A stretch of 64,000 nt of DNA from contig DATDYQ010000104.1 of the NCBI GenBank assembly GCA_035288965.1, positions 10,089 to 74,088 on the forward strand, given 5' to 3'. The notes beneath the pieces were generated by a model that was given only the letters and a program-made list of their open reading frames with translations, ran no database searches and was not told the DNA's origin. The position numbers and the translations under genes are program-made. Shown here in pieces: positions 2,383 to 37,455 of the stretch (positions are counted from its first letter, which is position 1; the number at the start of each line of letters is the position of its first letter). This stretch comes from Candidatus Nanoarchaeia archaeon. Its GTDB lineage: Archaea; Nanobdellota; Nanobdellia; SCGC-AAA011-G17; JAGVZF01.

Positions 2383-3726
2383 ATGTCCTCAACTAAACAA
2401 TTGTTAAGAAAAATGAAGGTAAGTCTTGTTTTCCCTAGAATGAAATACCAAACTGGAGATCCTCCCCTAGGTATGGCTTTATTAGCAGGTAATTTAAGAA
2501 AAAATGGATTTGGAGTAGAAATAATAGATACAACTTTTCATCAATCTCTAGATTATGTTAAAGAAAGATTAACCTCGTTTAATCCAGACTGGGTTGCTAT
2601 TTATTCAGACACAATGATGTATAATGATTGTATTAAAATTTCTGAAATGGCAAAAGAAATGGGTAAAAAAGTTATTCTAGGTGGTCCACATCCTACTTTA
2701 AAACCAGAAACTCTAATTGATCATGGAGATTATCTAGTACAGGGAGAGGCAGAAGTTACAATAATAGATGTAATCAATGGAAAATTTAATGGTACAAAGA
2801 TAGTAAAGGGAGTTCCTGCAGATATAGAAACTTTGCCAATGGCAACATATGATTTACTAGAAATGAAGGAATATATTAAGAGATGGCATTTGCTAGATAG
2901 CATTAATCCTGATCTTCATGGCACTAGTATGTTTTCGGCTCGTGGTTGTTCTTTTAGATGCACATTTTGTCAACCAGTTTTAGATAAACTCTTTGGTAGA
3001 TTATTCAGAACAAGAAGTGTTGATAGTATAATTCAAGAACTAAAATATCTAAAAGAAAATGTTGGTATCAAAGCATTTTTCTTCCAAGATGATACATTTA
3101 CATTAAAAAAGATATGGATACGTGAATTTTGTAAAAGAATGATAGATGAAAAACTCGACTTATTGTGGGGTTGTAATTCCCGTATTGATTTAATTGATAA
3201 GGAAATAATGCAAACAATGTACAATGCTGGTCTAAGAGTCATGCACATGGGTCTTGAATCTGGAAGTCAAAGAGTTTTAGATGAAATATATCATAAAGAT
3301 ATCAAATTAGAAGGAATTCCTGAAAAAATAGCTTTGGCAGAAAAAATTGGCATTCATTGTTTATGCTTCTTTATGCTAGGTGCTCCAGGTGAAACAAGAG
3401 AAGAAATCGAAAAAACAATAAAATTTGCTGCCTCTCTTGATGCTACAGAAATAACCGCCACAATTGCAACTCCATTGCCTGGAACTTATCTATATGATGC
3501 AATAAAAGACAAATATAAAATTACTACAGATTTCGATAATTTTGATTATTATAAAAACAGCGCTTTCGAAAATCCTGATGTAAATTTCAAAGAGCTTAAA
3601 TGGTTACAGAAAAAATTATTATTTAAATTTTATACAAATCCAAAAAGGTGGGGTTATATTGGTAAGCATCTCACCCATCCAAGTGGATATGGAAAAATGG
3701 TAAAGAAAATTGCTAGATTCCTATAA
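2383..3726 (+). CDS. B12-binding (class B) radical SAM enzyme
   Basis: N-terminal cobalamin-binding-like domain, then CSFRCTFC (CxxxCxxC) and 'LGLESGS'. Confidence 0.8.
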   Translation: MSSTKQLLRKMKVSLVFPRMKYQTGDPPLGMALLAGNLRKNGFGVEIIDTTFHQSLDYVKERLTSFNPDWVAIYSDTMMYNDCIKISEMAKEMGKKVILGGPHPTLKPETLIDHGDYLVQGEAEVTIIDVINGKFNGTKIVKGVPADIETLPMATYDLLEMKEYIKRWHLLDSINPDLHGTSMFSARGCSFRCTFCQPVLDKLFGRLFRTRSVDSIIQELKYLKENVGIKAFFFQDDTFTLKKIWIREFCKRMIDEKLDLLWGCNSRIDLIDKEIMQTMYNAGLRVMHMGLESGSQRVLDEIYHKDIKLEGIPEKIALAEKIGIHCLCFFMLGAPGETREEIEKTIKFAASLDATEITATIATPLPGTYLYDAIKDKYKITTDFDNFDYYKNSAFENPDVNFKELKWLQKKLLFKFYTNPKRWGYIGKHLTHPSGYGKMVKKIARFL

Positions 3727-5181
3727 TTATCTAATAAACAACCAACTATTGCTTAGCACCCAAGGTACTGTAAATATTATATTTGATATTATCATTATCA
3801 AAAATACTTGCCTCGCTACATCTTTATTTACATAATTTAATAATACATAAGCACTTAAAATTCCATAGATAAATGCAGCCGGAGAAAATAAATCCCAGCC
3901 TAATTTTTCTTGATATTCTATATTCAATGTTATTGTAAATAAGAAAAAGAAGCTTAACATTATCAATAAAAACATAACCACATTATCTTTAAAATTGATT
4001 TTTTTCCTATGTGTTAGAAACAATAAAACAAACAGCAATAAACCCACCCCTGCAGCTAATATATTCTCATTAAAGGAATAAGTAAAATGTTCAAAAGATA
4101 TCATCATATACTTTTCCCATGGAGATTTATATTCAAATAAAGGTAAAAACATAATTCCATCTCCCCCACCAAATGTATTTCCCACTTTTACCTTTTCTAT
4201 ATCAGTAACATGAATCCCGAAACTTGTATATAGATTAAATTCTATATAAACAAAAAATAATATTGTTAAAATAACAAAAGGAGCTATAAATCTGATAAAT
4301 TTTATGTTAAATACTCCTTTAAAAAAATTATTAATATTTAATTTCTTAATTCCAGAATCTACGAAATAAAGGTATAACAACGATGGTAATATCCAAAATG
4401 CAGCCAAATGACTCCAGAAAGATAGCCACATTGCTATTGTAGGATATATTAATTTAGTATTTTTCTTAAGATAATAGATAGAAACTAAGATGTATAAAAA
4501 CATTGTAAATGCTAATCTAGAAGTTCCCTCCCACCATCCAAAGAAAAACTCTATTGTTCCCATACTTCCTATAAACATAAACACAAAAAATCTTTCTATT
4601 TTGTCTTTCCCTAAAAGATTAGATAATAAGAATAATAGAATAATAAAGAAAAACCCTATAATATTCACAAAGAAACTAGTTGATTTAACAGGTTCCCACC
4701 CAGCTATAGGACTTGTTACTTTGTAAAATAAATAATCGCTATAAGAACTTATTGGTGAACTCATAAAAAACCTAGATGCTGGAATCGTAAATGCCTCTTT
4801 AGGTAAAATGCCGGCATCCCCCAAACCATAATTAACGATTTGAAATAAAAAAAATATTATAAAAAACGTAAAAGCAACTAAAATGTATCCCTTAATGTTT
4901 CTTTTTGCAAATAAACTATCTATAATTCTACTGTTTTCCAATCCATTTAATATCTTCTTCTGAATCTTTGGGATTGCAATAATGATTAATATAATCAATC
5001 CAATTAATGTCCATAAAAATTCAATCCAAGCCGGAATTGTTAAATTCAAAAAACCCCAAATTAAATAATTAAATTTACTAACCCCAAATATATTTAATAA
5101 AGTTCCAATTAACTTAATCAAAACAATTATAATTGCTACGGTTAGTACACTATTTTTTAATTTACTCATGTTCCTTTCCAC
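3727..5181 (-). CDS. Polytopic integral membrane protein. It may be a glycan polymerase or a GT-C-like enzyme.
   Basis: At least 12 hydrophobic segments. No WWDYG (AglB) motif. Confidence 0.5.
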   Translation of the reverse strand: MERNMSKLKNSVLTVAIIIVLIKLIGTLLNIFGVSKFNYLIWGFLNLTIPAWIEFLWTLIGLIILIIIAIPKIQKKILNGLENSRIIDSLFAKRNIKGYILVAFTFFIIFFLFQIVNYGLGDAGILPKEAFTIPASRFFMSSPISSYSDYLFYKVTSPIAGWEPVKSTSFFVNIIGFFFIILLFLLSNLLGKDKIERFFVFMFIGSMGTIEFFFGWWEGTSRLAFTMFLYILVSIYYLKKNTKLIYPTIAMWLSFWSHLAAFWILPSLLYLYFVDSGIKKLNINNFFKGVFNIKFIRFIAPFVILTILFFVYIEFNLYTSFGIHVTDIEKVKVGNTFGGGDGIMFLPLFEYKSPWEKYMMISFEHFTYSFNENILAAGVGLLLFVLLFLTHRKKINFKDNVVMFLLIMLSFFFLFTITLNIEYQEKLGWDLFSPAAFIYGILSAYVLLNYVNKDVARQVFLIMIISNIIFTVPWVLSNSWLFIR

Positions 5182-5279
5182 TTAAAAAGAAAATATAAAA
5201 TAATATCAAGCATATTACTAATACAAACAATCCACTCTCATAATTCAAATTCCAATATTTTATTATATAGTTTGTTAGA

Positions 5280-6539
5280 CTACTCATCTTTTATCTTAGT
5301 TGTTTTTATTATTATATCAACAAGCCAGTGTATTTTTACACTTTCTATCTTAAATCCGTGTCTCTCTATATCTTCTAAAAATTTTTTCTTTGAGAATTTC
5401 TCATCATGTGTATCTTTCCACATATCACCTACACTTCTGGTCCATAACCACCAAAACATATTAAATAAGGTATTTTCATTTGGGACAGATATAACCAATG
5501 TTCCATCTTTTCTTAATACCCTATTGATATTGTTTAAAGCTAAATCTCTATCTTCTACATGCTCTAAAACTTCCATTGCTGTTATTGCATCAAAGCTATT
5601 TGGTTTAAATGGTATATCTGTTATACTTCCTCGTTTAAAATTAAATCCTTTGCAATCCTTAACATCCATTCCAATTCCATGACCTAAAAATCTAATAAAA
5701 CTCCCATCTTTCATTGAATTACAAGGCTTTCCGCATCCTATATCCAATAAATCCTTTTTATCAGGTAATAATCTTCTAACTTTTCTATATCTTGCATAAT
5801 GATAGCTTTCTCTTAATCTATTAAACATCGGATTAAATAATTTTTTTCTTATTTTATATAAATACAGATCTCCAAGTTGCGTTACATATTCCATATTTTG
5901 CTTCATTCCAAGTTTACTTTTTCCATCAGTCCTATTCTTAAACATATAGGGAATTTCGATTGCTTTGTTATAATTTCCTTTGGCCAATATTTCCAAGCCA
6001 ATCTTATAGCCTCTAGGAACCAATCTTGTTTCTTCTATAACCTCTCTTTTAAAGAAAAAAAATCCAGACATAGGATCTTTAATGTTTGTAACAGGTTTAG
6101 CTAAAATTGTGGCAATCCTTGATGTTAATCTTCTTTGTTCAGGCCAATTAGTTACTCCTCCTCCTTCTATTAGTCTACTTCCTATTGTAATCTCCGCCTC
6201 ATCATTTAATATCGGTTTAACCATATCAAAAATCTTTTCAGCAGGATGACTTAGATCAGCATCCATAAAACCTATAATCTCTCCCTTAGAAATATCAATC
6301 CCATCCAAAACAGCAGATGCTAATCCTTTCTTATCTTTTCTGCATATTGCATTAATGTTATATTTCTTATCTTTCTTTATTTTATTTACAATATCAAATG
6401 TTCCATCTCTGCTATTATCATCAATTATAACAACCTCAAGTTTAAGCTTGTTTTTTTTAGAAACTAAAAATATATCATCTAATAATCTTCCAATATTATC
6501 ACTCTCATTTAAGGTAGGTATAATCAAAGATATATTCAT
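5280..6539 (-). CDS. Fusion protein with an N-terminal GT2 (dolichyl-phosphate sugar synthase-like) domain and a C-terminal class I SAM methyltransferase domain.
   Basis: N-terminus IIPTLNESDNIGRLL...VIIDDNSRDGT...DADLSHP (DPM1-like). C-terminus LLDIGCGKP...VLEHVED...LRKDGTLVISVPN (MTase motifs I-III). Confidence 0.75.
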   Translation of the reverse strand: MNISLIIPTLNESDNIGRLLDDIFLVSKKNKLKLEVVIIDDNSRDGTFDIVNKIKKDKKYNINAICRKDKKGLASAVLDGIDISKGEIIGFMDADLSHPAEKIFDMVKPILNDEAEITIGSRLIEGGGVTNWPEQRRLTSRIATILAKPVTNIKDPMSGFFFFKREVIEETRLVPRGYKIGLEILAKGNYNKAIEIPYMFKNRTDGKSKLGMKQNMEYVTQLGDLYLYKIRKKLFNPMFNRLRESYHYARYRKVRRLLPDKKDLLDIGCGKPCNSMKDGSFIRFLGHGIGMDVKDCKGFNFKRGSITDIPFKPNSFDAITAMEVLEHVEDRDLALNNINRVLRKDGTLVISVPNENTLFNMFWWLWTRSVGDMWKDTHDEKFSKKKFLEDIERHGFKIESVKIHWLVDIIIKTTKIKDE

Positions 6540-17726: not shown

Positions 17727-17805
17727 ATTATTTTTTAATAAGAAAGATTTATAAAAGTTGTTAAATCGAAGGAAGGTTTAAATATTTTTCTCTATTTTCA
17801 GTAAA

Positions 17806-21910: not shown

Positions 21911-22393
21911 ATGCCAATTGATGATGCATTAAATGATTTGCCAAGATCAAAAGAAGCGTCAAAACAAATAGTTGCACCTCCAGAACCAGAGCAAGCAAAT
22001 AAAGTAATTTTCACTGATGCCGTACAACAATTTAGAAATAGTTTACAATATTATCTTCCTTATCAATTGGCAACAATTATAAAAAGTAAAGGACTAAATG
22101 TAACCTGGGATAACGGCAATATAGTTTCTTTTTTAGATAATGAAATTTTTTTAAAATTTACGTCTATTGGAATTGCAGCCCATAAAAGATTTTGGTTCGG
22201 TCATGATTGGATAGGTTATTTATATTTTAATGATCCTAATAAATGGAAATTGGAAGTTTATGGAAGAAAAAATATAGATAGATTAAAAAATCTTGCTGAC
22301 GAAATATCAAAACAATATTCAAAAGATATAGAGCTTATATTAGAATTAGAATATCCAAAATCAAAGTCAGTAGAATATGCTGGTTTTATCTAA
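21911..22393 (+). CDS. Hypothetical protein whose N-terminal 'MPIDDALNDLPRS' motif is shared with the ORF at 55209
   Basis: ORF. The N-terminal paralogy is seen directly. Confidence 0.45.
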   Translation: MPIDDALNDLPRSKEASKQIVAPPEPEQANKVIFTDAVQQFRNSLQYYLPYQLATIIKSKGLNVTWDNGNIVSFLDNEIFLKFTSIGIAAHKRFWFGHDWIGYLYFNDPNKWKLEVYGRKNIDRLKNLADEISKQYSKDIELILELEYPKSKSVEYAGFI

Positions 22394-23535
22394 ATCTTTA
22401 ATTCTTCATAGATTAACTTAACAACCCTTTCAGTTGCTTTCCCGTCATTACCTTCAACAAAGCTTTCCCTTCTTTGCTTTAATTCTTCTCTAAATTCTCC
22501 ATTATATAAAATTTTCATTAAATTAGGAACCAACTCTCTTGTATTATAAACACCAAGAGAATAACCATTTTTGTTGGTAATCAAAGGATCCTCTGTTTTT
22601 AATCCAACTTGTAAACTTAAAACATCAGTATCTAATAAACAAGCTTCCATTAATGAAGTTGACATCATTCCAACTACCAAATTAGAAGCTTTCATTGTCT
22701 CTCTTGTATTATAATTATTATTATACTCTCTTTTTGTTGCGTCTTCCTTCCCACTCATGACTAAATTCATATCTTTTAATAATAATGTTCTTTCTACAAT
22801 ATCCTCAAATGTCTCTCTAGGATGAAATTTAATAACAAATGTCCCATGATATCCCATGTCATTCAATCCATTAGATAATATTTTAAAAATTGTTTCTTCA
22901 TTATAACCCCAATCAGTAGTTTTATTCGCTTTAAGATCTCCTTTAATTGGTTGTGAAATAAAGGTTATCAAACTTCCTTCTGGATGTACCCCAAAATATT
23001 CTCTTATCTCTTTTCTTTTATCAATTGTAAATTTAGCATTTAATTCTCCTATATCATCAAAGTAAGGGTTTCCTGTAATCTTTAATCTTTCTCTAGGTAA
23101 ACCTTCTTTAACCATTTTTTCCAAACTTTCTGCATCTAATGCCGTATGAATATCAGGCATGCATCCTAAGTTATCTCCTGTTTTGTCATTTCTAACCCTT
23201 ACAATATAATTGACTGGTAAATCTATAACAGAAATGCTTCTTACCCCTCTTTTCCTAGCTTCCAATATTAATTTTTTTTCAACACACCATCCACCGCTAC
23301 TTCCCGTGACTAGAAGGTTTGGTTTTTCTTCGTCTTCAAATTCAACTTCGGCAGATGTATAATCATTCAATATAGAATGAGATAAACCAGCTTGTGTAAA
23401 TGAACTAATAGCAGGTCCGTTAGCTATTAATGTCAAATCCACTTTATCATCTTCTTGCAATCTTCTTGCAACAGGAATAACAGAATTCGCACTTCCAGTA
23501 TACTGCGCTGCCACCATTACTTTAGATTTTGTCAC
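22390..23535 (-). CDS. TagB/TagF-like GT-B protein (CDP-glycerol glycerophosphotransferase-family fold, PF04464-like)
   Basis: 'IKFHPRE' and a C-terminal 'MMSTSLMEACLLDTDVLSL' GT-B donor-site-like region. Confidence 0.45.
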   Translation of the reverse strand: MTKSKVMVAAQYTGSANSVIPVARRLQEDDKVDLTLIANGPAISSFTQAGLSHSILNDYTSAEVEFEDEEKPNLLVTGSSGGWCVEKKLILEARKRGVRSISVIDLPVNYIVRVRNDKTGDNLGCMPDIHTALDAESLEKMVKEGLPRERLKITGNPYFDDIGELNAKFTIDKRKEIREYFGVHPEGSLITFISQPIKGDLKANKTTDWGYNEETIFKILSNGLNDMGYHGTFVIKFHPRETFEDIVERTLLLKDMNLVMSGKEDATKREYNNNYNTRETMKASNLVVGMMSTSLMEACLLDTDVLSLQVGLKTEDPLITNKNGYSLGVYNTRELVPNLMKILYNGEFREELKQRRESFVEGNDGKATERVVKLIYEELKI

Positions 23536-23574
23536 TTTTTATCACAAAATAAAGGTGTAGAAAAATATATAAAT

Positions 23575-25359
23575 CTATTTCTGATATATTTCATCAATAA
23601 GATTTATAACTCTTTCGGTGCTTTTTCCATCAATTTTATAAGCATAATCCTTAATAAATTTCTCCATGTTTTTTTCTAATTTTTCTTTAATCTTTTTATT
23701 ATTAAAAACATCATTTATTGCATTTTTTAATTCTTTTTCTTCTTTGACATCAATTACACATCCATAATCATTGTAATCAATCATCTCATTGCTTCCTTTG
23801 ATATTAGCTAAATTTAAAGTAATAACAGGAACATTAAATAACATAGATTCAATAACAACAGTAGACGAGGCTCTGCTTATAGTTAAATCTGCAATATTCA
23901 AAAAGTTATAAATATCATAATCTTTAACAACAACAACTTTATTTTTAATATTATTTAATCTGCTATTATAAAAATCAACATCATCTTTTGGGTGTAATTT
24001 TATTATTAGTTGTTCATCTTGCAAGGAATTAATAACTGCCTTGAACATTTCCTCCTTCTCTGGAACAGTCTGTGTTCCGAATAATATTATCTTCTTATCT
24101 TTATCCAAATTAAATTGTTTATATACTTCTTCTTTATCATACTCTTTATTTTTAATAATATCAAACTTACTGGCTCCAGTTATAACTATTTTCTCTTCAT
24201 TAACATTATTTTGCAATAAAAATTTCTTCGTAGATTCTCCCCAAACAGCTATTTTTGTGCTTGTTACAGGAACAAATCCCAATCTTCCAGCAACTCCATG
24301 TTGTAAAACTAAAGATTTTATTTCTAATTTATTCCCGACAAATGCAATTGTTTTTCCAAATCTATGAACGTCACTACCCATAACAATAATATTTATCTCT
24401 TCTTTTTTGATAACAATTTTAATTCCTTCTATCAATCTAACAACTTCATAAAAATGTTTAAACACAGTATAATGCAATTCATCTTCTAAAATTTCCCATA
24501 AATTAATATTATCATACATAAATCTCCTATCTTGGTATAAAATCTCCCATATTTGATCAAGCTCTTTTTTCTTTTTATCAAGAACTTTGTTTATTTCACT
24601 TAAATCATAATCTGCAAATGTATTAAATTTTATTCCTTTTTTCGCAAATGCCTCCTGAACATCTAAAGCCAAAGCGAATATTAAATAATTTTTATTCTGT
24701 TTTTTCATCTCTTCTATAATAGGAAGCATTATCTGCGGATCTAAATTTAAATAACTAAAAAACATCACTTTCTTATCGCCATAATTTTTATTTTTATAAT
24801 TAAAACTTTTTAGTTTCACATAATTATCCAAAACAACTGGTTTTATGTATCTTCCAGCAATAAATTTTGTTTTTTCTCTAAATATATTAATAAGATTAAC
24901 ATTCCTATCGCTAACAATCTCATATTTAGCATTCAGTTCTTTCAAACTAGTAATTATTGTTTTGCTTAGAAAATCTTTTCCATCAATTACCAAAAACATA
25001 TCTGGCTTCTCTTTCTCAATAACCTTCTTTATTAATTCTATATTTGCAATCAAGCTTCTTAAAACAAGTTCAAAATGTAAGCTTGTACATTCATATAATG
25101 GAATTCCATCATGCTTTGCTAATTTTTTTGCTTCAGGAAAACTAATCATATTCCAATTAATGCTTATATTCCTTATTTTGTCAGCAAGTTCATTAATTAA
25201 TTTGGTTTCATTGATATAATCACTCTTAGTTTTAACATTAGCAAAATTAACTTTTTTGTTAGAAAGATTTAGTATTATTCCATCCCCTAAATCTTTTAAT
25301 CTTTTATTGATCTTATCTAGTTCTTTCTCGTCTTTTACTATTCCTATAATCCTTGTCAT
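23575..25359 (-). CDS. TagF-like GT-B protein (CDP-alcohol phosphotransferase or a possible CMP-sugar transferase)
   Basis: 'IKLHPKDD', 'ISRASSTVVIESMLFNVPVI' and an 'IIVMGSDVHRFGKTIAFVGNK' region. Confidence 0.5.
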   Translation of the reverse strand: MTRIIGIVKDEKELDKINKRLKDLGDGIILNLSNKKVNFANVKTKSDYINETKLINELADKIRNISINWNMISFPEAKKLAKHDGIPLYECTSLHFELVLRSLIANIELIKKVIEKEKPDMFLVIDGKDFLSKTIITSLKELNAKYEIVSDRNVNLINIFREKTKFIAGRYIKPVVLDNYVKLKSFNYKNKNYGDKKVMFFSYLNLDPQIMLPIIEEMKKQNKNYLIFALALDVQEAFAKKGIKFNTFADYDLSEINKVLDKKKKELDQIWEILYQDRRFMYDNINLWEILEDELHYTVFKHFYEVVRLIEGIKIVIKKEEINIIVMGSDVHRFGKTIAFVGNKLEIKSLVLQHGVAGRLGFVPVTSTKIAVWGESTKKFLLQNNVNEEKIVITGASKFDIIKNKEYDKEEVYKQFNLDKDKKIILFGTQTVPEKEEMFKAVINSLQDEQLIIKLHPKDDVDFYNSRLNNIKNKVVVVKDYDIYNFLNIADLTISRASSTVVIESMLFNVPVITLNLANIKGSNEMIDYNDYGCVIDVKEEKELKNAINDVFNNKKIKEKLEKNMEKFIKDYAYKIDGKSTERVINLIDEIYQK

Positions 25360-25371: not shown

Positions 25372-26442
25372 CTATTTCTTTAATTCTCCCACGTGTTCCC
25401 AATCCAATATATCATCCTCTTTCATATCTTTTAATACCCTTCTTCCTATAATCTCGCTAAAGAATCTTGGATTAATTCCTGTTCCAGGTCTTTTTGATGT
25501 TATATTTTTAACATCAAATATTTCCCCTGCCCTAATATCCCTATTTGCTACAATGCTCCTTCTTGCTAATCTTTGAGCAGGCTCTTCAACTTTAATTGGT
25601 CGTCTTGCTAATGTACTTCCTAATGCACTTTCTATCTGTTTTATATTTGTGACCATCTCTTTCAGTTCTTTAGGATCAACAGATAACCAATGATCGGCAC
25701 TTCCCTTCAATGTTTTATCTATAGTATAATGCTTCTCTATCATCTTTGCTCCCAGACTAACAGCTCCGATCGGCACCAAAGTTCCCAAACTATGGTCACT
25801 TAATCCGATTAAATAATCCGGAAATATTTTCTTTAAAGTTGGAATCATATTCAAATTCATATCTTTCGTAGGTGTCGGATAAGATAAAATGCAATGCAAT
25901 AATATTATCTGATTATTTCCTTGCTCTTCAATAACGCTTACAGCTTCTTCTATCTCTCCAATTGTAGCTGCTCCTGTAGATAATGCCATCGGCAATCCTT
26001 TTTTTGCTATATGTTTTAAAAGATTTAAGTGAGTTATATCTGCACTTGCAATTTTATACATTGGCACTCCAATCTTTTCCAAGAAATCAGCGCTTTCTTC
26101 ATCAAATGGTGTTGAAAAAAATATTATTCCTAATTCTTCAGCATATTTCTGCATTTTAATAAAATCTTCTTCACTAAGATAATCGAAGTTCTTGTATTCA
26201 TCATATTGTGTTTCATCACTTTCTGTCCAATATTTAGGAGAATTTTTTATTGCTATTTTTTCAGCTTTATATGTTTGGAATTTTATTGCATCTGCCCCGT
26301 TTTCTTTTGCTTTTTTTATTAATTCATAACCTCTTTCCAACATACAATCATGATTTACTCCAGCTTCAGCTACAACAAAACAAGGCTCATCATCCCCTAC
26401 ATATCTATTTCCTATCTTTATTCTTGTCACCATTTCAACCAC
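25372..26442 (-). CDS. neuB: NeuB-family nonulosonic-acid synthase (second copy, with SAF domain)
   Basis: 'CFVVAEAGVNHDCMLERGYELIKKAKENGADAIKFQTYKAEKI' and a C-terminal SAF-like domain. Confidence 0.8.
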   Translation of the reverse strand: MVEMVTRIKIGNRYVGDDEPCFVVAEAGVNHDCMLERGYELIKKAKENGADAIKFQTYKAEKIAIKNSPKYWTESDETQYDEYKNFDYLSEEDFIKMQKYAEELGIIFFSTPFDEESADFLEKIGVPMYKIASADITHLNLLKHIAKKGLPMALSTGAATIGEIEEAVSVIEEQGNNQIILLHCILSYPTPTKDMNLNMIPTLKKIFPDYLIGLSDHSLGTLVPIGAVSLGAKMIEKHYTIDKTLKGSADHWLSVDPKELKEMVTNIKQIESALGSTLARRPIKVEEPAQRLARRSIVANRDIRAGEIFDVKNITSKRPGTGINPRFFSEIIGRRVLKDMKEDDILDWEHVGELKK

Positions 26443-27826
26443 CCTTATAATTTTTTATTATCTGTTCAGCAAGCCATAAATCATATTCATTATATATCCT
26501 TACAGCTTCGTTCGGCATCATCTCAACATAAGCTACACTATTCCCGATAATCCCATTATTGTTTAAATTCTCTAAAGTTGTAATATAAAATGCTCCATTT
26601 TCTTCTAGTATAGTATCTTTTTCATCTCTCAATAATCTTTTATTAAATAATGGCTCGATTCCATATCTTCCTGGTTTCCAATGAAAATTAAGATTTGCAC
26701 AAACAGAGACTATGCTATCTGTTTTAAATATTAATTGAGTAAAAATTCCTTCTTTTATATGCTCACTTGTTTTAAAAGGGCTTATCAAATGTAAAACAGC
26801 AATTAAATCAGGAACATAATCATCATTCTTCTTCAAATAATCAACAACATGTCTTACAACATCATCAACATGAACTGTTTTTTTTGCTAAATCAATTGGT
26901 CTTTTGATAACATAAGCTCCTAATTTTTCAGCAGCACTTGCAATATCGTAATCTTCAGTAGAAACAACAATTTTATTAAACAATTCAGTTTTTTTCGCTT
27001 CATCTATTGTATAAGATAATAAAGGTTTTCCATTTAAATTTGCAATTGGAATTTTAATCCCATTAATCATGTCGCCTCTAGCAGGAATAACAGCTAATAT
27101 TTTCAAATTTTTTAACTTTCCATCATAATGTCTTTTAACAAATTCTTCCTTTACAATTCTTTTAGAATGTAAAATCCCTTTCATATTCTTAGTCATATTT
27201 GCACCATGTCTTCTATAATAAAACAAAGGCAGATTAATATTTCTAACTTTAAATTTAGTAATAAACTTCATCCAAAAATCATAATCTTCTCCAATCTTTA
27301 AATTTTCATTATATCCCCCAATTTCATCATAGCATATTCTCTTGTACATCGCTCCAGCAGCTAAAGGACTTCTTTGCAGTAAATCAACTTCTTCATTAAC
27401 TTTCATCAATCTATTATGCTCCAATATCTTTCCATCTTCGTCTATAGTATAATAATCTGAATAAACCAAATCAACATCTTTATTTTCATACAAAAATCTT
27501 TCTTCTACTAATAGCAAATTATCATCAAAATAATCATCAGCATCTAATCTTATTATAAAATCCCCTTGAGACATACTAATTCCTTTATTACAGGCTGCGC
27601 TTAATCCAACATTATCTACCCTTATTACTTTCAAATTATTTGGAAATTTTGATTTATAACTTTGAATTACATCTTGAGTATTATCTGTACTTCCATCATC
27701 AACTAAGACAATTTCAAAATCTTTATAAGTTTGCTTGGTCAAGCTATCTAAACATTTATCTAAAAATCTCCCATAATTGTGCGCGGTTATTATAACGCTT
27801 ACTTTTGGTTTATTAATAGCTTCCAT
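26435..27826 (-). CDS. Fusion of an N-terminal GT2 domain and a C-terminal CMP-sugar cytidylyltransferase (NeuA-like)
   Basis: 'VSVIITAHNYGRFLDKCLDSLTKQTYKDFEIVLVDDGSTDNT' (GT2). 'ILAVIPARGDMINGIKIPIANLNGKPLLSYTIDEAKK' (NeuA/KdsB-like). Confidence 0.7.
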   Translation of the reverse strand: MEAINKPKVSVIITAHNYGRFLDKCLDSLTKQTYKDFEIVLVDDGSTDNTQDVIQSYKSKFPNNLKVIRVDNVGLSAACNKGISMSQGDFIIRLDADDYFDDNLLLVEERFLYENKDVDLVYSDYYTIDEDGKILEHNRLMKVNEEVDLLQRSPLAAGAMYKRICYDEIGGYNENLKIGEDYDFWMKFITKFKVRNINLPLFYYRRHGANMTKNMKGILHSKRIVKEEFVKRHYDGKLKNLKILAVIPARGDMINGIKIPIANLNGKPLLSYTIDEAKKTELFNKIVVSTEDYDIASAAEKLGAYVIKRPIDLAKKTVHVDDVVRHVVDYLKKNDDYVPDLIAVLHLISPFKTSEHIKEGIFTQLIFKTDSIVSVCANLNFHWKPGRYGIEPLFNKRLLRDEKDTILEENGAFYITTLENLNNNGIIGNSVAYVEMMPNEAVRIYNEYDLWLAEQIIKNYKGG

Positions 27827-30544: not shown

Positions 30545-32047
30545 ATGAATAAAAAACATTTGAATATTATAGCAGGTGGAGCTTTAATCACTCTAATTGG
30601 AATTCTAATCTCTAAATTATTCAGTTATTTTTATAGATTAATTGTTTCAAGATTGGGAAGTGAAAATTATGGATTAATATCATTAGCTTTCGCTGTTGTT
30701 GGAATACTTTCAATATTCACTTCCATTGGTTTAGATTTTGGTATTACTAGATATATCTCTTATTATAAAAACAAAAATGATCTTCCAAGATTAAAAGGAA
30801 CTTTTTTTTCAGCTTTTAAGATTAGTTTTGTTTTAAGTATAATATTTAGTATGATTTTATTCTTTTCTTCTAATTTCATTTCTATAAATCTGTTTCATAA
30901 TCAAAATCTTTCCATTTTATTAAAAGTATTTTCTCTTGTTTTAATATTCCAATCAGTAAGAAAGATAATAACAGAAACTATAAGGGCATTCCAAAAGATA
31001 AATTATTATGTAATCTCATTAAATATAGTTGAGCCTGTTGTAAATCTTTTATTAACTTTAATTTTTATCTATCTTGGTTATAGCCTTACAGGCATTAGTA
31101 TTGCTTATGTATCTGCTGTATTTATCAGTCTTGCAATTTCTATTTATTTTTTAGAAAAAAAAGTATTTCCGATATTTACTAGTAAAATTGCTTCTATTTA
31201 TGAAAATAAGGAATTAATATCATATTCATGGCCGTTAATGTTTAGTACAGCTTTAGCAAGATTTATTGTCTGGACAGATATATTATTCCTAGGATTTTAT
31301 AAAACCGCTTCTGACGTTGGAATCTATAATACTGCAATACCTACTGCACAATTGCTTTTAATAGCACCAACAGCTATTCTAAACCTATTTGTTCCGATAA
31401 TAACTGAATTAATAGCAAAAAATAATCCAGATGAAATTAAAGGTATTTATCAAACAACAACAAAATGGATTTTCTTCATTAACTTTCCAATATTTCTGAT
31501 ATTTATAATGAATTCTAATCCAATATTAAAAGTATTATTTGGTTCAGAATATTCTATTGGTTTTATGGCTTTAATCGTTTTGTCTGTTGGTTATTTTATT
31601 AATTCAATATTATTTGCGTCAAGATACATGCTTGATTCTCTAAAGAAAACAAAATTTATTTTACTAAATACAATCATAGTCACATTGTTAAATATCATTC
31701 TCAACTTAATCTTAATTCCAAAATATGGAATTTTAGGAGCAGCGATAGCAACCGCATTAACAATTTCATTATTTGGAATAATAAACTGGATTAAAGTTTA
31801 TAATATAAATAAAATAAATGTTTTCAAATTAAGTTATGTAAAATCTATATTTGCTAGCATAATCGCAGTAGTGCCAGTATATTTATTCTTAAAAATTACT
31901 AACCTTACAACCTTCTTCCTTTCATTTATCCTATCTGGAGCAATTTACGGTTTCTTAATGTGGAAAACAAAAGCCTTATCTAAAGAAGACGGTGAAGTGC
32001 TTGATAGTTTAATAAAATTTAAAAAAGTAAAAGATATAGGATCATAA
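30545..32047 (+). CDS. Wzx-like oligosaccharide flippase (polysaccharide biosynthesis protein, MOP superfamily)
   Basis: About 12-14 TM segments in the typical Wzx arrangement. Confidence 0.65.
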   Translation: MNKKHLNIIAGGALITLIGILISKLFSYFYRLIVSRLGSENYGLISLAFAVVGILSIFTSIGLDFGITRYISYYKNKNDLPRLKGTFFSAFKISFVLSIIFSMILFFSSNFISINLFHNQNLSILLKVFSLVLIFQSVRKIITETIRAFQKINYYVISLNIVEPVVNLLLTLIFIYLGYSLTGISIAYVSAVFISLAISIYFLEKKVFPIFTSKIASIYENKELISYSWPLMFSTALARFIVWTDILFLGFYKTASDVGIYNTAIPTAQLLLIAPTAILNLFVPIITELIAKNNPDEIKGIYQTTTKWIFFINFPIFLIFIMNSNPILKVLFGSEYSIGFMALIVLSVGYFINSILFASRYMLDSLKKTKFILLNTIIVTLLNIILNLILIPKYGILGAAIATALTISLFGIINWIKVYNINKINVFKLSYVKSIFASIIAVVPVYLFLKITNLTTFFLSFILSGAIYGFLMWKTKALSKEDGEVLDSLIKFKKVKDIGS

Positions 32048-33592
32048 AGCATATAATTTAAATTTCTTGTTTTCATATAATAATCTAAAATTCATTTCTT
32101 TTTCAACGACAATATAATCTACCCCATATTTTCTCTTTAAAACTAAAAAATCGTCTTCATTTAATTTATTATATCCTTCATCACATTTTTCAATAAATAT
32201 TACCGCATCAACTTTAAAATCCTTTGTCTTACAAACATCTTTAATTCTTTCAATAGCTGTTTTAACTAGTGAAGGATTATACAAAAAATTTCCTGCCGTC
32301 TTCCAGTCAATTAAATTACTCCTTTTAGAAAAAGCATTAAATCCAGTATACAATGGGGGGGTTATAAATAAAGAATCTTTATCTGTGTTTTTTTCAGCCC
32401 AATAAGATATATCTTGGAATTCATCTGATTGTTTATCTCCAGGATATTCAATATTGTAAATAAATCCTTTTTCTACTCCAACAAAAGCAGGAACTAAAAT
32501 TATGATTAACAAAAATATGATTGTAAAATAAAATATAAATGATTGTAAACTTATTATCTTTCTAAAATCTTTCCTATAAAAATTGATCAAATAATTCGCA
32601 ATATAAATTAAAACAAATATCTTAAAAAATATGAAACTCCTAAACAATATTGCAGTCATAAGAATAGGGACTGGAAAAACTTCGCTAAAAATTAACCCAA
32701 ATATCCCCATTATTCCAATTGCAACTAAAAATAAAATAATTTTTCTATTCAATCTTTCTTCTGGTTTATATCTTAAAGAAACTCCAAATAAGTATAATAA
32801 AACTCCAAATAAAACAAATTGATAAATAGGCCACAAACTTGGAAATATATGATGACTTAATCTCAATTTAAGAAAATCCAGCCATAATCCTTTATCAACA
32901 CTTAATTTTTGTATTCCTAAACTTCCAATAATAATTGGTAAACTTAAAACAAAAAAGAAAATATAAGATAATATAACTTCTTTCATTTTTCTTTTCTCAA
33001 GTATCTTGCTTTTCTGAATATAACTAACTAAAAGATAAAAAGAATACATCGCAATTACATATAAAGAAACTAATAAATTAAGGTAATTAATAATTACCAA
33101 TAATAAAAAAGCTATAATATAATTTTTCTTTAAAAAGAAAAAAATTGAAAATAAAGCTATCGGTAAAGAAAAAAACCATGGACTTATCGTACTATCGATT
33201 AGTTTTATATTACCCAATGTTAACAAAGTTCCTTTTACCCCTATTAATAAAATAACGCTCAAAATTCCAACTAATTTATCTTTAAATAAATAATAAGCCA
33301 ATAAAAATATAGAAAAAACTAATAATAATCTTGAAAATAAAAATCCTAAAAAGAAAAACCATTCAACATTAATATCTTTAAAAAACTCTCCAAAAGTTAG
33401 TTCTATCGGTGCATATATTATCCTTAAATTATCAACTAATATATCTTTATCATATAAGCTATTATCTTTATAGTAATTTATCAAAGGAACATAAACAACA
33501 CTATCATTAGAATTAAAATTATATCCTGTATAAAATATTGAAGCTATAGCTAATAATATTAATATTATTACTGTAAATGTCCATCTTTTCAT
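32042..33592 (-). CDS. Integral membrane protein with a C-terminal soluble domain. It may be a GT-C or polymerase type.
   Basis: Hydrophobicity pattern only. Confidence 0.45.
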   Translation of the reverse strand: MKRWTFTVIILILLAIASIFYTGYNFNSNDSVVYVPLINYYKDNSLYDKDILVDNLRIIYAPIELTFGEFFKDINVEWFFFLGFLFSRLLLVFSIFLLAYYLFKDKLVGILSVILLIGVKGTLLTLGNIKLIDSTISPWFFSLPIALFSIFFFLKKNYIIAFLLLVIINYLNLLVSLYVIAMYSFYLLVSYIQKSKILEKRKMKEVILSYIFFFVLSLPIIIGSLGIQKLSVDKGLWLDFLKLRLSHHIFPSLWPIYQFVLFGVLLYLFGVSLRYKPEERLNRKIILFLVAIGIMGIFGLIFSEVFPVPILMTAILFRSFIFFKIFVLIYIANYLINFYRKDFRKIISLQSFIFYFTIIFLLIIILVPAFVGVEKGFIYNIEYPGDKQSDEFQDISYWAEKNTDKDSLFITPPLYTGFNAFSKRSNLIDWKTAGNFLYNPSLVKTAIERIKDVCKTKDFKVDAVIFIEKCDEGYNKLNEDDFLVLKRKYGVDYIVVEKEMNFRLLYENKKFKLYAL

Positions 33593-34868: not shown

Positions 34869-35578
34869 CTGAAAAAAATAATAAAGAATTGTTCAAATCA
34901 TTTTTTATATTAGGACTTGTTTCTATATCTATTTTATTTATATTTGTTTATTGTGATTATTTTTATAATTACACCAATAAAGATGGTGCACTCCAATTTT
35001 CTTATATAGCTCTATTCATATCGATATTAACTTTATTTGCATTAGGCACATTTGAGTTTTATACTAAATATTATGAAACTAACAAGTCTTTAAAAATTAA
35101 TAGATACAAATTGGAAATGTTAATGCAAGAAATTGCTACTAACCAAGATATTTTAAATAATGTATTTTTAAAAAATAAAGAAGTGACATTAAAAAATAAA
35201 ATTAAAGAGAAAAAGAGTGTGTATAGTATTTTAGCTTCTGGATTTCTAACTACCTCTTTAAAAGACATACTTGAAAATATTTATCTAGAAAATCAATTTT
35301 TAAGAGCGAAAATTACCTTTTATCACTTCAGAATCGATTCTATAAATTCAATGATAAATATACAAGCTTATAGAAATTTTGATGTAGAAAGTCAGTTATT
35401 AAACTATAAAAATATTTACATGCTTATGGAAAAAAAGGTCGTTATGACTTTCTTTGAGAAATCTGACAAGGATATTGATAAAAATTTAAAATATATATAT
35501 GCAGAACCCATTGACTTAAATGAACTTTTTGATAAATTAATAAATGATGTTAAAGATTATATTAAGAATTATTGTTAA
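34865..35578 (+). CDS. Hypothetical membrane-anchored protein
   Basis: ORF with two N-terminal TM segments. Confidence 0.4.
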   Translation: MTEKNNKELFKSFFILGLVSISILFIFVYCDYFYNYTNKDGALQFSYIALFISILTLFALGTFEFYTKYYETNKSLKINRYKLEMLMQEIATNQDILNNVFLKNKEVTLKNKIKEKKSVYSILASGFLTTSLKDILENIYLENQFLRAKITFYHFRIDSINSMINIQAYRNFDVESQLLNYKNIYMLMEKKVVMTFFEKSDKDIDKNLKYIYAEPIDLNELFDKLINDVKDYIKNYC

Positions 35579-35823: not shown

Positions 35824-35841
35824 ATCCTTTACTATCCATAA

Positions 35842-37455
35842 TTGTATTCTTTACTGATTTCCATAAATAAAAGACTAAGAAAAGGTTTAAATATCTTTAA
35901 ATTTTTCATTATTATGCTGAAAAGAGGTGTAGGAGTATCTATGAATAAAAGTGTTAGGATTAGAAAGAAAAAGATCATTTTAATCTATCCTAATCTAGGT
36001 ATTTATGGAAAGATTATTCAAGATTTACCATTAGCTTTACTACAAACAGCAAGAATTGTTTATGACAAAGGCTATGACATATTAATTCTCGATCAAAGAT
36101 TAGATGATAATTGGAAAGATACATTAAAAAAAGAGATTAACAAAGACACTTTATTTGTAGCCTTATCTGCAATGATAGGAGAACCAATAAACTATGCTTT
36201 AGAAATTGCAAAGTTCATGAAAGATAACTATCCTGAAATGCCTGTTCTCTGGGGCGGTATTCATCCAACATTATTGCCTTTACAAACTTTAGAACATCCA
36301 TTAGTCGATATTGTAATTAAAGGAGATGGAGAAGAAACAATCTATGATGTTGCTCAAGCATTGGAAAAAGGTAAATCATTAAAAGGAATTCCAGGTGTTT
36401 TTTATAAAGAAAAAGATGGAACTATAGTTTCAAATCCAGTAAGAGCTCCATCTAATCTAGATGTTTTGCCTCCAATTCCATATAACCTAGTTAATATAGA
36501 AGCTTATGAAAGGCAAGGATTCAAAGAAAAAACATTTACAATATTTACCTCAGCTTCCTGCCCTCATCGATGTGCATTCTGCCATGTTCCAGGTGAAAAA
36601 AGCACTTGGCGTCCAGAAAGTGTAGATAGAACAATGAAACATCTAAGATTTATCTATGATACTTATCATCCCCAATATATTTACTTTGGTGATAATGATT
36701 TCTTTGTAAGAATGGATAGAGCTAAAGAAATTTTCGCAAGAATAAAAGAAGAAAAATTTGAAGGAGTAACTTTCGGTTTCAGAGGAACAAGAATAGATGA
36801 ACTAGATAGAATGGATGATACAATGTTATCTCTAATGGAAGAAATCAATCTAACATATTTACACATTGGAGCTGAATCAGGATCTCAAAGAATTTTAGAT
36901 TTTATCTGGAAAGATATCAAAGTAGAACAAACAATAAGAGTAAACCAAAAACTTGCCCATCATCCAAAACTTCATCCATCTTATAATTTCTTCTGCGGAG
37001 TTCCTACAGAAACTAAAGCTGATCTTAAAGCAACAACTGATCTAATTTTAAGATTATTAAAAGATAATCCAAATTCTCAAATTAGCAGCGCAACTCAATT
37101 CACTCCTTATCCTGGAACAAGATTATTTGACATCGCTATTCAATATGGATTTCAACCTCCAACCTCTCTAGAAGGATGGGCAAAATTTGATCCAAGTGAT
37201 TTCGCAAAAAGACTTCCATGGTTAAGTAAAGAAAGACAAAGATTATTAGATTTAATTTACATAACAGCCTGGTTTGTAGATAAGAAAGTAAACTGGAACT
37301 TTACATCAGATGAAATGTTTTGGAAAGTTTTCCGTACATTATCATCAGCTTATCGTCCAATAGCAAAGTTTAGATTAAAACATCATTTTACAGGTCTTCC
37401 ATTTGAATATCCAGCAAGAAAAATATTCTTTAACATATTAGAAAATAGAAACTAA
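35842..37455 (+). CDS. B12-binding radical SAM enzyme. The true start is probably the ATG at 35941.
   Basis: 'KIILIYPNLG' B12-domain start, 'CPHRCAFC', 'IGAESGS'. GAGGTG lies upstream of the ATG at 35941. Confidence 0.8.
   Translation: MYSLLISINKRLRKGLNIFKFFIIMLKRGVGVSMNKSVRIRKKKIILIYPNLGIYGKIIQDLPLALLQTARIVYDKGYDILILDQRLDDNWKDTLKKEINKDTLFVALSAMIGEPINYALEIAKFMKDNYPEMPVLWGGIHPTLLPLQTLEHPLVDIVIKGDGEETIYDVAQALEKGKSLKGIPGVFYKEKDGTIVSNPVRAPSNLDVLPPIPYNLVNIEAYERQGFKEKTFTIFTSASCPHRCAFCHVPGEKSTWRPESVDRTMKHLRFIYDTYHPQYIYFGDNDFFVRMDRAKEIFARIKEEKFEGVTFGFRGTRIDELDRMDDTMLSLMEEINLTYLHIGAESGSQRILDFIWKDIKVEQTIRVNQKLAHHPKLHPSYNFFCGVPTETKADLKATTDLILRLLKDNPNSQISSATQFTPYPGTRLFDIAIQYGFQPPTSLEGWAKFDPSDFAKRLPWLSKERQRLLDLIYITAWFVDKKVNWNFTSDEMFWKVFRTLSSAYRPIAKFRLKHHFTGLPFEYPARKIFFNILENRN

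Follow-up and report, generated by a model that had tools for sequence, protein, structure and literature searches.

Among the radical S-adenosylmethionine (SAM) enzymes with an N-terminal cobalamin-binding (B12-binding) domain, GenK, GenD1 and Fms7 have aminoglycoside sugars as their substrates, and that of MoeK5 is a sugar already joined to a phospho-lipid. The Arn pathway also modifies its sugar while this is lipid-linked, viz. by ArnD deformylation, and we know of no three-component polyprenyl-phosphate system that has a radical SAM step. In a 2026 review, GenK, GenD1, MoeK5 and Fms7 are listed as Csp3-methyltransferases, HpnJ is counted among the B12-dependent radical SAM enzymes, every functionally characterised group of these enzymes includes C-methyltransferases, and most of the groups, the largest included, are without known function (PMC12931638). 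The present work concerns four radical SAM (rSAM) enzymes encoded within a 64,000-nt stretch of DNA from a DPANN archaeon (contig DATDYQ010000104.1, positions 10,089 to 74,088; referred to below as the window), to which the working names rSAM-A, rSAM-B, rSAM-C and rSAM-D are given (Table 1). All four open reading frames (ORFs) are intact and all of them lie inside a glycosylation island of ~48 kb, which extends from about position 260 to 48,500, as seen from Pfam and NCBIfam scans of the window proteins. Based on the conserved gene modules, gene fusions and neighbourhood enrichment described below, the link between these enzymes and glycan biosynthesis is real and conserved and is not a matter of mere proximity, and a role of the four proteins in glycan tailoring is very probable. 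The fuller reading that we favour, to which we give somewhat less than an even chance, is that the window forms part of a DPANN cell-surface glycosylation island and that the four rSAM proteins are its tailoring enzymes, the three B12-type enzymes acting on polyprenyl-phosphate-linked sugars and rSAM-D on a nonulosonic acid. The use of cobalamin, the type of reaction and the nature of the substrate (sugar or lipid, and lipid-linked or nucleotide-linked) are what we infer.

The first-pass annotation of this window had placed four rSAM genes in a glycosylation cluster and had described three of them as combining an N-terminal cobalamin-binding-like domain with a CxxxCxxC motif, and both statements hold: the surrounding ~48 kb consists of glycosyltransferase, NeuB, CMP-transferase, Wzx and related genes, and in the three proteins both Pfam domains are found above their cut-offs and the motifs could be located. 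The ORFs are present where they had been reported, save that the start of the third gene is most probably the ATG at 35914 and not the TTG at 35842; the resulting 513-aa form is the one deposited (HLC56883.1) and called on identical contigs, and rSAM-B is deposited as HLC56876.1. Against Pfam cut-offs of 32.1 bits for B12-binding (PF02310) and 29.5 bits for Radical_SAM (PF04055), the two domains score 67.1 and 82.8 bits in rSAM-A, 70.6 and 81.8 bits in rSAM-B, and 53.1 and 62.7 bits in rSAM-C (scored on the ORF 35842-37455), with the B12-binding domain preceding the Radical_SAM domain in each case, while rSAM-D has Radical_SAM (60.3 bits) and SPASM (55.5 bits; PF13186, cut-off 21.5 bits). Each protein has one CxxxCxxC, at residues 189-196 in rSAM-A, 215-222 in rSAM-B, 216-223 in the 513-aa form of rSAM-C and 76-83 in rSAM-D. 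rSAM-A, rSAM-B and rSAM-C, the pairwise identity among which is only 27-29%, have in common a Rossmann-domain motif GGxH(P/M)T (GGPHPT at residue 100 in rSAM-A). For rSAM-D a Cys-rich, SPASM/twitch-like C-terminus had been reported, of which the twitch part is upheld and a full SPASM domain is not. Its C-terminal region has only 5 Cys (274, 292, 293, 337 and 340), short of the seven-Cys SPASM motif with two auxiliary [4Fe-4S] clusters, and four of them (274, 293, 337 and 340) can be aligned with the region of the auxiliary cluster in the twitch domain of BtrN; due to this, rSAM-D is regarded as a twitch-type enzyme. The further suggestion that enzymes of class B, to which the three B12-binding proteins had been assigned, may epimerise their substrates does not agree with what is known for this class. 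Among carbohydrate rSAM enzymes, the epimerases and dehydrogenases that are known are of the twitch type, in agreement with rSAM-D and not with the three B12 proteins.

In comparisons with NCBIfam models, the scores of rSAM-A, rSAM-B and rSAM-C (in this order) are 174.6, 205.0 and 121.4 bits for HpnJ (TIGR03471, cut-off 577.6), 137.5, 207.2 and 115.8 bits for BchE (TIGR02026, cut-off 481.35), 112.2, 74.4 and 47.4 bits for the AprD4 diol dehydratase (NF033070, cut-off 500), of which only the rSAM core aligns, 105.1, 99.6 and 79.5 bits for MgmA/QCMT (TIGR04014, cut-off 360), and 24.5, 48.1 and 26.8 bits for the MiaB/RimO methylthiotransferases (TIGR00089, cut-off 251). HpnJ is thus the top match for rSAM-A and rSAM-C and a near-equal top match for rSAM-B, and the window has no hopanoid genes. 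Membership of PhpK, BzaD and HpnR was likewise rejected on the NCBIfam cut-offs, and throughout the scores lie 2.3- to 10-fold under the curated values. Since no curated family cut-off is reached, the enzymes do not belong to the bacteriochlorophyll or tRNA-modifying families, which was the outcome that the first-pass annotation had named as speaking against it. Judging from their sequences, rSAM-A, rSAM-B, rSAM-C and rSAM-D represent four different uncharacterised subfamilies; in databases, the window proteins and their homologues are named 'radical SAM protein' or, wrongly, 'BchE/YgiQ'. The best PDB sequence match over the rSAM core is AprD4 for both rSAM-A (E=1.8e-24) and rSAM-B (E=1.9e-16), and in comparisons with solved structures the rSAM cores resemble AprD4 and MgmA/QCMT (9CCB); their N-terminal domains, in contrast, can be aligned to OxsB, TsrM and TokK, which do bind cobalamin, and not to the N-terminal domain of AprD4. 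For rSAM-C, the AlphaFold2 (AF2) model has a pLDDT of 88.8 and its top Foldseek matches are TsrM, OxsB and MgmA, followed by AprD4, TokK and CysS, and a profile of the rSAM-C family matches OxsB with E=6e-28 in an alignment that spans the B12 domain. However, AprD4 and ArsL possess a Rossmann-like N-terminal domain and yet bind no B12 (PMC12931638). Hence, the binding of cobalamin by rSAM-A, rSAM-B and rSAM-C is a plausible prediction, as they are similar to true binders, and it should not be interpreted as proven, in view of the similar architecture of these two B12-free enzymes.

Relatives of rSAM-C were collected from the GTDB species representatives, and the ORFs called in their loci were labelled using the window proteins as queries, a procedure of low sensitivity. 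In the window, rSAM-C heads a module (35914-40474) with a class I SAM methyltransferase, a family 2 glycosyltransferase (GT2) and an O-carbamoyltransferase, and orthologues of the methyltransferase (120-260 bits) and of the GT2 (145-375 bits) come after rSAM-C in 12 of the 15 loci in which the rSAM protein scores at least 430 bits, the methyltransferase orthologues following it in at least 8 distinct loci. The gene order of the window is kept in the Woesearchaeota loci L012/13, L015-L018, L020 and L025 and is rearranged in other phyla. The carbamoyltransferase also ends the module in L012, L015, L018, L020 and L025, and the membrane protein DUF6798, the divergent partner of rSAM-C, directly adjoins it in L012/13, L015-18 and L025 and is present in L019. 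Proteins of ~710 aa in which an rSAM-C-type protein is fused to a class I methyltransferase occur in Omnitrophota and other bacteria (P0257, P0258, P0261, P0263, P0266 and P0271), and in one such locus (L011) the fusion is followed by a GT2 and a PMT_2 protein. The best PDB match of the GT2 of the window module is the Pyrococcus furiosus dolichyl-phosphate mannose synthase (DPMS; 5MLZ, E=4.6e-10), with ArnC also matching, and its best NCBIfam matches, AglJ (cut-off 325) and a dolichyl-phosphate-hexose transferase, are both sub-threshold; as these equivalog cut-offs are missed, the assignment denotes homology at the family level only and not an exact function. The DUF6798 family in turn matches the PMT_2 (ArnT/PMT, GT-C) family with an hhalign probability of 96.1% (E=3e-9, 346 columns). 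Between DUF6798 and rSAM-C, the region 33652-35578 (+) contains genes for a 321-aa protein with a weak NosD/beta-helix match and a 237-aa protein with 2 transmembrane (TM) segments. A 95%-identical relative (L015) lacks both genes, with ~100 bp separating DUF6798 from rSAM-C, and the local GC in the window is 24%, so that this region looks like a recent insertion.

Over a broader set of rSAM-C relatives, a GT2 is found within 2 genes of the rSAM gene in 32 of the 63 evaluable loci and within 5 genes in 39; 31 of the same 63 have another B12-rSAM within this distance of 5 genes, and 13 have a twitch/SPASM rSAM. Enrichment was assessed by a Fisher test over 79 loci (from 79 GTDB genomes), the control being positions at a distance of 6 or more genes within these loci; as the loci are glycan-rich to begin with, the comparison is conservative. 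At the two nearest positions on each side, GT2 genes are 3.3-fold enriched (14.4% vs 4.8%, p=1.5e-4) and methyltransferase genes 3.8-fold (6.7% vs 1.9%, p=0.006), due to which the co-occurrence with glycosyltransferase genes in related genomes, proposed earlier as a check, is confirmed for rSAM-C relatives. The neighbouring GT2 genes lie on the rSAM strand in 35 of 41 cases; 24 of the 41 encode soluble proteins of ~240 aa and 15 encode proteins of ~300-317 aa with C-terminal TM segments, mostly two. Both of these architectures are typical of polyprenyl-phosphate sugar synthases, the TM form being that of GtrB/ArnC. In Proteobacteria, Nitrospirota and their relatives, an AsnB-like glutamine amidotransferase takes the place of the methyltransferase as third partner (8 of the 10 tested). 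A trio of B12-rSAM, AsnB-like amidotransferase (~630 aa) and GtrB-like GT2 (~300-317 aa, with C-terminal TM) occurs in L035, L036, L038, L040, L041, L044, L050 and L053, from Magnetococcales, Rhodospirillales, Nitrospirota and Desulfovibrionales, which suggests that the product of this trio is a uronic-acid amide, linked to a lipid and carrying a radical modification as well. The module of Geomonas paludis is part of a flagellin-type nonulosonic-acid locus (L014, with NeuB, CMP-transferase, Epimerase_2 and a Maf-like protein). Small EamA-type genes are also present in related loci, and glycan loci with several rSAM genes occur in other Woesearchaeota, in Omnitrophota and in other bacteria.

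For rSAM-B and rSAM-D, the setting in the window is a tightly packed operon in which they are followed by a GT2-cytidylyltransferase fusion, NeuB and two putative nonulosonate transferases. Orthologues of rSAM-B from Woesearchaeota and Nanoarchaeota (51-60% identity) adjoin a GT2 in all three contexts seen (L006, L008 and L009). In L006, the order is PMT_2 (34% identity), rSAM-B orthologue (59%), GT2 (62% to the product of 45053-46012), DegT, Hexapep and GFO, so that the rSAM-B orthologue lies between orthologues of the window PMT_2 (40535-42205) and of its AglJ-like GT2 (45053-46012); this arrangement is an Arn-like lipid-linked amino-sugar module. A linkage of rSAM-B with NeuB as a general rule was rejected, as L006, L008 and L009 have no nonulosonic-acid genes. 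Only the distant bacterial relative from Geomonas paludis sits in a NeuB/Maf-type locus, and in a metagenome scan for rSAM-B orthologues the identity was, among the matches listed, at most 37% except for a short 92%-identical fragment (L129). The nearest solved relatives of rSAM-D are BtrN, BlsE and DesII, all of which act on sugars or cyclitols, and for this reason a BtrN-like oxidase or epimerase of a nonulosonic acid or its precursor is the favoured function of rSAM-D. Its family has 1,950 representatives at E<1e-30, one of which (P0378, on a contig of 2.2 kb) is fused to a CTP_transf_3 cytidylyltransferase, and other members are fused to FkbM or class I methyltransferases or to a 2-hydroxyacid dehydrogenase. 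These fusion partners are small-molecule or sugar-acid enzymes and not partners of peptide maturation.

The gene for rSAM-A abuts that for a polytopic membrane protein, beyond which lies a fusion of a GT2 with a class I methyltransferase. The GT2 domain of this fusion matches the P. furiosus DPMS (5MLZ) with E=4.9e-45 over residues 1-222 and also GtrB (5EKP) and ArnC, and its methyltransferase domain is homologous to the methyltransferase of the rSAM-C module (E=2.6e-9), to which the small methyltransferase-like protein encoded further on shows 50% identity over 46 aa. Together, the rSAM-methyltransferase and GT2-methyltransferase fusions tie all three activities to one pathway. For the polytopic membrane protein, possibly a transferase of the GT-C kind, profile comparison gave only weak matches (probability 18% vs PMT_2 and 0.2% vs DUF6798). 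The rSAM-A orthologues in Woesearchaeota show 58-81% identity, and after one of them (59%) come genes for a protein of 175 aa, a GT2 of 238 aa and a protein of 486 aa. In other loci (L095, L096 and L178-L180), a conserved trio consists of a CrtI/amine-oxidase-type FAD enzyme (~425 aa), an rSAM-A-like protein and a second, 481-aa B12-rSAM, and it adjoins large membrane proteins (DUF6044 or DUF2079) or sits in arrays of up to 6 rSAM genes. On the other side of rSAM-A in the window, 1001-2332 (-) encodes a soluble 443-aa protein with no Pfam or NCBIfam match; it has W/G-rich repeats (e.g. DGHWPGEWWEGSSG) and resembles, by eye only, an alpha/alpha-barrel of the prenyltransferase/terpene-cyclase type. 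The possibility that this ORF is the FAD oxidase of the rSAM-A homologue loci was rejected, as it has neither BLAST similarity nor a Pfam match to support it.

Table 1. Radical SAM genes of the window and the genes associated with them
Feature	Positions	Strand	Evidence or remark
rSAM-A, B12-binding-domain radical SAM enzyme, 447 aa	2383..3726	+	Pfam, motifs
Polytopic membrane protein, 484 aa, ~8 TM, abuts rSAM-A	3727..5181	-	hydropathy; no Pfam/NCBIfam match
DPMS-like GT2 fused to class I SAM methyltransferase	5280..6539	-	Pfam GT2 and Methyltransf_11/23
Small methyltransferase-like protein, 180 aa	6635..7177	+	Methyltransf_11, E=4.4e-6
Two BFO_1060/'surface carbohydrate biosynthesis'-type putative nonulosonate transferases	22390..25359	-	NF046086 and TIGR04396, both sub-threshold
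NeuB-type nonulosonic acid synthase	25372..26442	-	NeuB 294 bits; NeuB_NnaB 360 vs cut-off 399.65
GT2 fused to CMP-nonulosonate/ulosonate cytidylyltransferase	26435..27826	-	Glycos_transf_2 and CTP_transf_3; PseF 73.5 bits, sub-threshold
rSAM-D, radical SAM enzyme with BtrN-like twitch domain, 358 aa	27857..28933	-	7-nt gap to rSAM-B
rSAM-B, B12-binding-domain radical SAM enzyme, 484 aa	28941..30395	-	first gene of nonulosonic-acid operon
Wzx/MATE-type flippase	30545..32047	+	Polysacc_synt, MatE
DUF6798 membrane protein, 10 TM, GT-C-like	32042..33592	-	divergent partner of rSAM-C
rSAM-C, B12-binding-domain radical SAM enzyme, 513 aa	35914..37455	+	Pfam, motif, AF2 model, profile
Class I SAM methyltransferase, 209 aa, partner of rSAM-C	37458..38087	+	starts 2 nt past rSAM-C stop
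Soluble DPMS/AglJ/ArnC-like GT2, 239 aa, presumed dolichyl-phosphate sugar synthase	38087..38806	+	1-nt overlap with methyltransferase stop
O-carbamoyltransferase	38798..40474	-	Carbam_trans_N/C; converges on GT2
PMT_2 GT-C, hexapeptide acyltransferase, DegT, AglJ-like GT2 (2 TM), polysaccharide deacetylase, GFO	40535..48542	-	Arn-like / WbpB-E-D-like lipid-linked amino-sugar module

If the four enzymes tailor the surface glycan as we propose, then each B12 enzyme would be paired with a GT2 of the polyprenyl(dolichyl)-phosphate sugar synthase type and with a large GT-C-type membrane transferase. The GT2 would place a monosaccharide on dolichyl phosphate at the cytoplasmic face of the membrane, after which the B12-rSAM would alter an unactivated carbon of the lipid-linked sugar, most likely by a methylcobalamin-dependent C-methylation. 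The class I methyltransferase and the O-carbamoyltransferase may then attach further groups, and after flipping of the decorated sugar across the membrane the GT-C protein (DUF6798 or PMT_2) would hand it to the surface glycan or to an S-layer protein. In the case of rSAM-D, which stands with rSAM-B at the head of the operon, the most likely step is that a carbon with a hydroxyl group, in the nonulosonic acid or a precursor of it, is oxidised or epimerised at about the stage of CMP-activation. For action of the B12 enzymes at the polyprenyl-phosphate-sugar stage the chances appear about evenly balanced, and the ArnD step and the HpnI/HpnK/HpnJ pathway would be precedents for a modification at the lipid stage. 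C-methylation is the most probable single reaction, since C-methyltransferases, sugar methylases among them, are present in every characterised B12-rSAM group, even if its likelihood falls a little below one half. The suggestion in the first-pass annotation of radical-modified sugars or lipid carriers is accordingly sustained with regard to the conserved link to glycan biosynthesis, while C-methylation and the choice between sugar and lipid as the target are not established by it.

Several observations weigh against this proposal. Homologues of rSAM-A elsewhere lie beside a CrtI-like FAD oxidase and additional rSAM genes, which could point to lipid chemistry. The linkage of rSAM-B with NeuB is seen only in this species, its neighbours elsewhere being a GT2, or a GT2 and a PMT_2 protein. 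The highest NCBIfam scores belong to HpnJ or BchE, neither of which is a methylase, and the best PDB match of rSAM-A and rSAM-B, viz. AprD4, is not cobalamin-dependent. Neither genes for cobalamin transport or salvage nor a cobalamin riboswitch were found in the 64-kb window, and the DPANN archaea are not known to make B12. Literature searches found no published work on any of these subfamilies, and no publication tying B12-radical-SAM enzymes to nonulosonic-acid, DPANN, polysaccharide or GT-C contexts. Lastly, the non-methylating members (BchE, HpnJ and ThnL) are inseparable from the methylases by sequence or structure (PMC12931638).

As neither sequence nor structure reveals such non-methylating members, ring contraction of the HpnJ type and dehydration of the AprD4 type stay serious alternatives. 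If the lipid-linked sugar is acted upon without methylation, then its ring could be contracted, as by HpnJ/Cds, to a cyclitol head group, or it could undergo a radical dehydration of the AprD4 type, possibly without cobalamin, and we consider this to be unlikely, though by a lesser degree than the explanations that follow. The leading place of HpnJ among the NCBIfam matches points in this direction, and the glycosyltransferase HpnI is a GT2. HpnJ acts after HpnI and the deacetylase HpnK on lipid-linked glucosamine (PMC13459092), and the window likewise holds GT2s and a polysaccharide deacetylase. AprD4, a sugar 1,2-diol dehydratase that uses no cobalamin, is similarly the best PDB sequence match of rSAM-A and rSAM-B, and the sequence cannot separate such enzymes from methylases (PMC12931638). 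However, where the cut-offs for HpnJ and AprD4 are 577.6 and 500, the three proteins score no more than 121-205 and 47-112 bits, respectively, and AprD4 aligns with the rSAM core alone, whereas the N-terminal domains match OxsB, TsrM and TokK. That a class I methyltransferase is closely coupled or fused to the rSAM is suggestive of a decoration rich in methyl groups, yet it is also compatible with a non-methylating reaction. It is more improbable that the target of the B12-rSAM enzymes is not the sugar but the isoprenoid part (the dolichol carrier, or membrane lipids obtained by scavenging), the chain of which they might, for instance, C-methylate. The B12-rSAM enzymes HpnP and HpnR are known to methylate hopanoids, and radical SAM methylation of tetraethers of the glycerol dialkyl glycerol tetraether (GDGT) type by Gmm is also known (PMC13459092, PMC12931638). 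The CrtI/amine-oxidase-type FAD enzyme flanking the rSAM-A homologues would suit chemistry of this kind, and the partner GT2 and GT-C proteins all use polyprenyl-phosphate substrates. The model TIGR04072, named 'lipid biosynthesis B12-binding/radical SAM protein', gives 125-135 bits for rSAM-A and rSAM-B, but its cut-off of 360 is missed, and no prenyltransferase or lipid-synthesis gene was found in the window. Moreover, the same modules are present in archaea and in many bacterial phyla despite their different carriers and lipids, the fusion partners are a small-molecule methyltransferase and, in the twitch enzyme's case, a CMP-sugar cytidylyltransferase, and the bacterial relatives pair with AsnB-like amidotransferases, which act on sugar carboxylates and not on isoprenoids.

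It could also be asked whether these proteins are maturases of peptides or proteins, which carry out a methylation or crosslinking of S-layer or pilin proteins resembling that by MgmA or by the enzymes of RiPPs (peptides synthesised by the ribosome and modified post-translationally), and are located in the island by chance. MgmA/QCMT (9CCB) is among the best PDB matches, the ApyD and RiPP C-methyltransferase models match sub-threshold, SPASM/twitch enzymes are frequently peptide maturases, and S-layer-like and large secreted proteins are encoded downstream in the window. However, the ApyD, RiPP and MgmA scores are far under their cut-offs, and the tight operons leave no room for a precursor-peptide gene beside rSAM-B/rSAM-D or beside rSAM-C and its methyltransferase. 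In the contexts examined, the conserved partners are GT2, methyltransferase and GT-C proteins, with no gene for a precursor peptide, a protease or a dedicated peptide exporter, and as a member of the twitch family is fused to a CMP-sugar cytidylyltransferase, we regard this explanation as very improbable. Lastly, the JGI automatic annotation names several homologues 'anaerobic Mg-protoporphyrin IX monomethyl ester cyclase' or 'YgiQ', which would make the window enzymes ordinary members of the non-glycan families BchE, MiaB/RimO or HemN. This is refuted by the curated score thresholds, as BchE scores 116-207 bits against 481.35, MiaB/RimO 24-48 against 251 and HemN ~40 against 325, and the window lacks any chlorophyll or porphyrin pathway context, so that the chance of its being correct is close to nil.

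The island in which the four genes lie has further features. The window has a GC of ~29%, contigs identical or near-identical to it come from groundwater metagenomes, and the species-level relative is a Candidatus Woesearchaeota metagenome-assembled genome (contig CAZJUI010000001.1), while NCBI lists the proteins under 'Candidatus Nanoarchaeia archaeon'; a methanococcal-type S-layer domain and a 97-nt tRNA are archaeal signs in the window itself. The island encodes glycosyltransferases of the GT2, GT4 and GT9 families and three GT-C-type membrane proteins (two PMT_2 and one DUF6798), and its sugar-acid genes comprise NanE, two NeuB-type synthases, two CMP-sugar cytidylyltransferase domains and two putative nonulosonate transferases of the BFO_1060 type. 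A Wzx flippase, an O-carbamoyltransferase, a heptose-7-phosphate kinase-like PfkB protein and a WbpB/E/D-like set (GFO oxidoreductase, DegT aminotransferase and hexapeptide acyltransferase) with a polysaccharide deacetylase are also present. A second set of genes of the ulosonic-acid type at 17055-21548 encodes a HAD phosphatase, an APH-family kinase, a DHDPS/NanA-family aldolase and a NeuB-like synthase-cytidylyltransferase fusion (587 aa). Its synthase is unlike the canonical NeuB at 25372-26442, due to which the island may make two different CMP-activated keto-sugar acids. A toxin-antitoxin-like pair of a HEPN protein (148 aa) and a minimal nucleotidyltransferase (MNT, 185 aa) at 44030-44987 (-) interrupts the island between the DegT aminotransferase and the AglJ-like GT2, and another MNT-like gene is found at 55774-56463. 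Downstream, the regions 48693-53751 (+) and 56705-59059 (-) encode two big proteins (633 and 854 aa) with an N-terminal signal-like TM segment, a C-terminal TM anchor and no family match, and a 784-aa protein with a methanococcal S_layer_C domain; these three are likely glycosylated surface proteins served by the island. The 97-nt tRNA at 53757-53853 (-) gave an Rfam match of 47.8 bits and was missed by ARAGORN in bacterial mode, and its extra length suggests an archaeal tRNA intron.

Beyond this window, we put forward as a doubtful but testable proposal that a B12-rSAM, an accessory enzyme, a GT2 of the DPMS/GtrB type and a GT-C protein form a hitherto undescribed module, by which a polyprenyl-phosphate monosaccharide may undergo radical C-alkylation or carbocycle formation before it is flipped. 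In the same tentative scheme, archaea would have a class I methyltransferase as the accessory enzyme and bacteria an AsnB-like amidotransferase, and the module would possibly be spread over DPANN, Omnitrophota, Geobacterales, Magnetococcales, Nitrospirota, Elusimicrobiota and Patescibacteria. If this proposal is correct, then radical chemistry would join the repertoire of three-component (Arn/Gtr-type) glycosylation as a means of tailoring glycans at the lipid-carrier stage, uncultured archaea and anaerobic bacteria would commonly carry C-branched or carbocyclic sugars on their surfaces, and new enzymes for C-H functionalisation of sugars could become available for glycoengineering. It would also follow that ultra-small and probably B12-auxotrophic symbionts need cobalamin, scavenged from their host or community, for their surface coat. 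A compact, conserved module with two independent fusions provides, for several orphan B12-rSAM subfamilies, a testable hypothesis of the substrate, viz. a monosaccharide linked to dolichyl or undecaprenyl phosphate (Dol-P/Und-P), although the finding is not surprising in kind.

With regard to known systems, the window enzymes can be likened to GenK, GenD1 (GntE), MoeK5 and Fms7 by architecture and not by sequence comparison: in both, an N-terminal B12-binding Rossmann domain is followed by an rSAM core, and the substrates of the known enzymes are sugars and not peptides. Unlike them, however, the genes described here are part of surface-glycan islands of DPANN archaea and anaerobic bacteria, with GT2s of the DPMS/GtrB type and GT-C proteins, and not of actinomycete antibiotic pathways. 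In rSAM-D, the core and a single-cluster twitch domain with the BtrN Cys pattern recall BtrN, a 2-deoxy-scyllo-inosamine dehydrogenase; the similarity to BtrN, DesII and BlsE amounts to only ~41 bits, and rSAM-D differs from them in its location in a nonulosonic-acid operon and in having a family member fused to a CMP-sugar cytidylyltransferase. AprD4, a radical SAM 1,2-diol dehydratase, has a sugar substrate and matches the rSAM core of rSAM-A and rSAM-B, but it binds no cobalamin (PMC12931638) and its N-terminal domain has no alignment to the window proteins. The HpnI-HpnK-HpnJ and Cds systems are similar in that a glycosyltransferase loads a hexosamine or hexose on a lipid, which is then remodelled by a radical SAM enzyme (PMC13459092). 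In contrast to these, the window has no hopanoid or GDGT genes and the partners are a polyprenyl-phosphate sugar synthase and a GT-C protein, so that the product is presumably passed to a glycan and not kept as a lipid head group. The ArnC-ArnD-ArnE/F-ArnT, GtrB-GtrA-GtrX and DPMS-PMT systems share with the window a GT2 of the DPMS/ArnC/GtrB type and a PMT_2/GT-C transferase, and in the case of the Arn system also a deacetylase and a DegT aminotransferase, whereas the B12-rSAM together with the class I methyltransferase (or, in bacteria, the AsnB-like amidotransferase) are conserved additions in the loci described here. The enzymes are new members of a known superfamily, and the recurrent module is, as far as can be told, an undescribed variant of the three-component polyprenyl-phosphate glycosylation systems.

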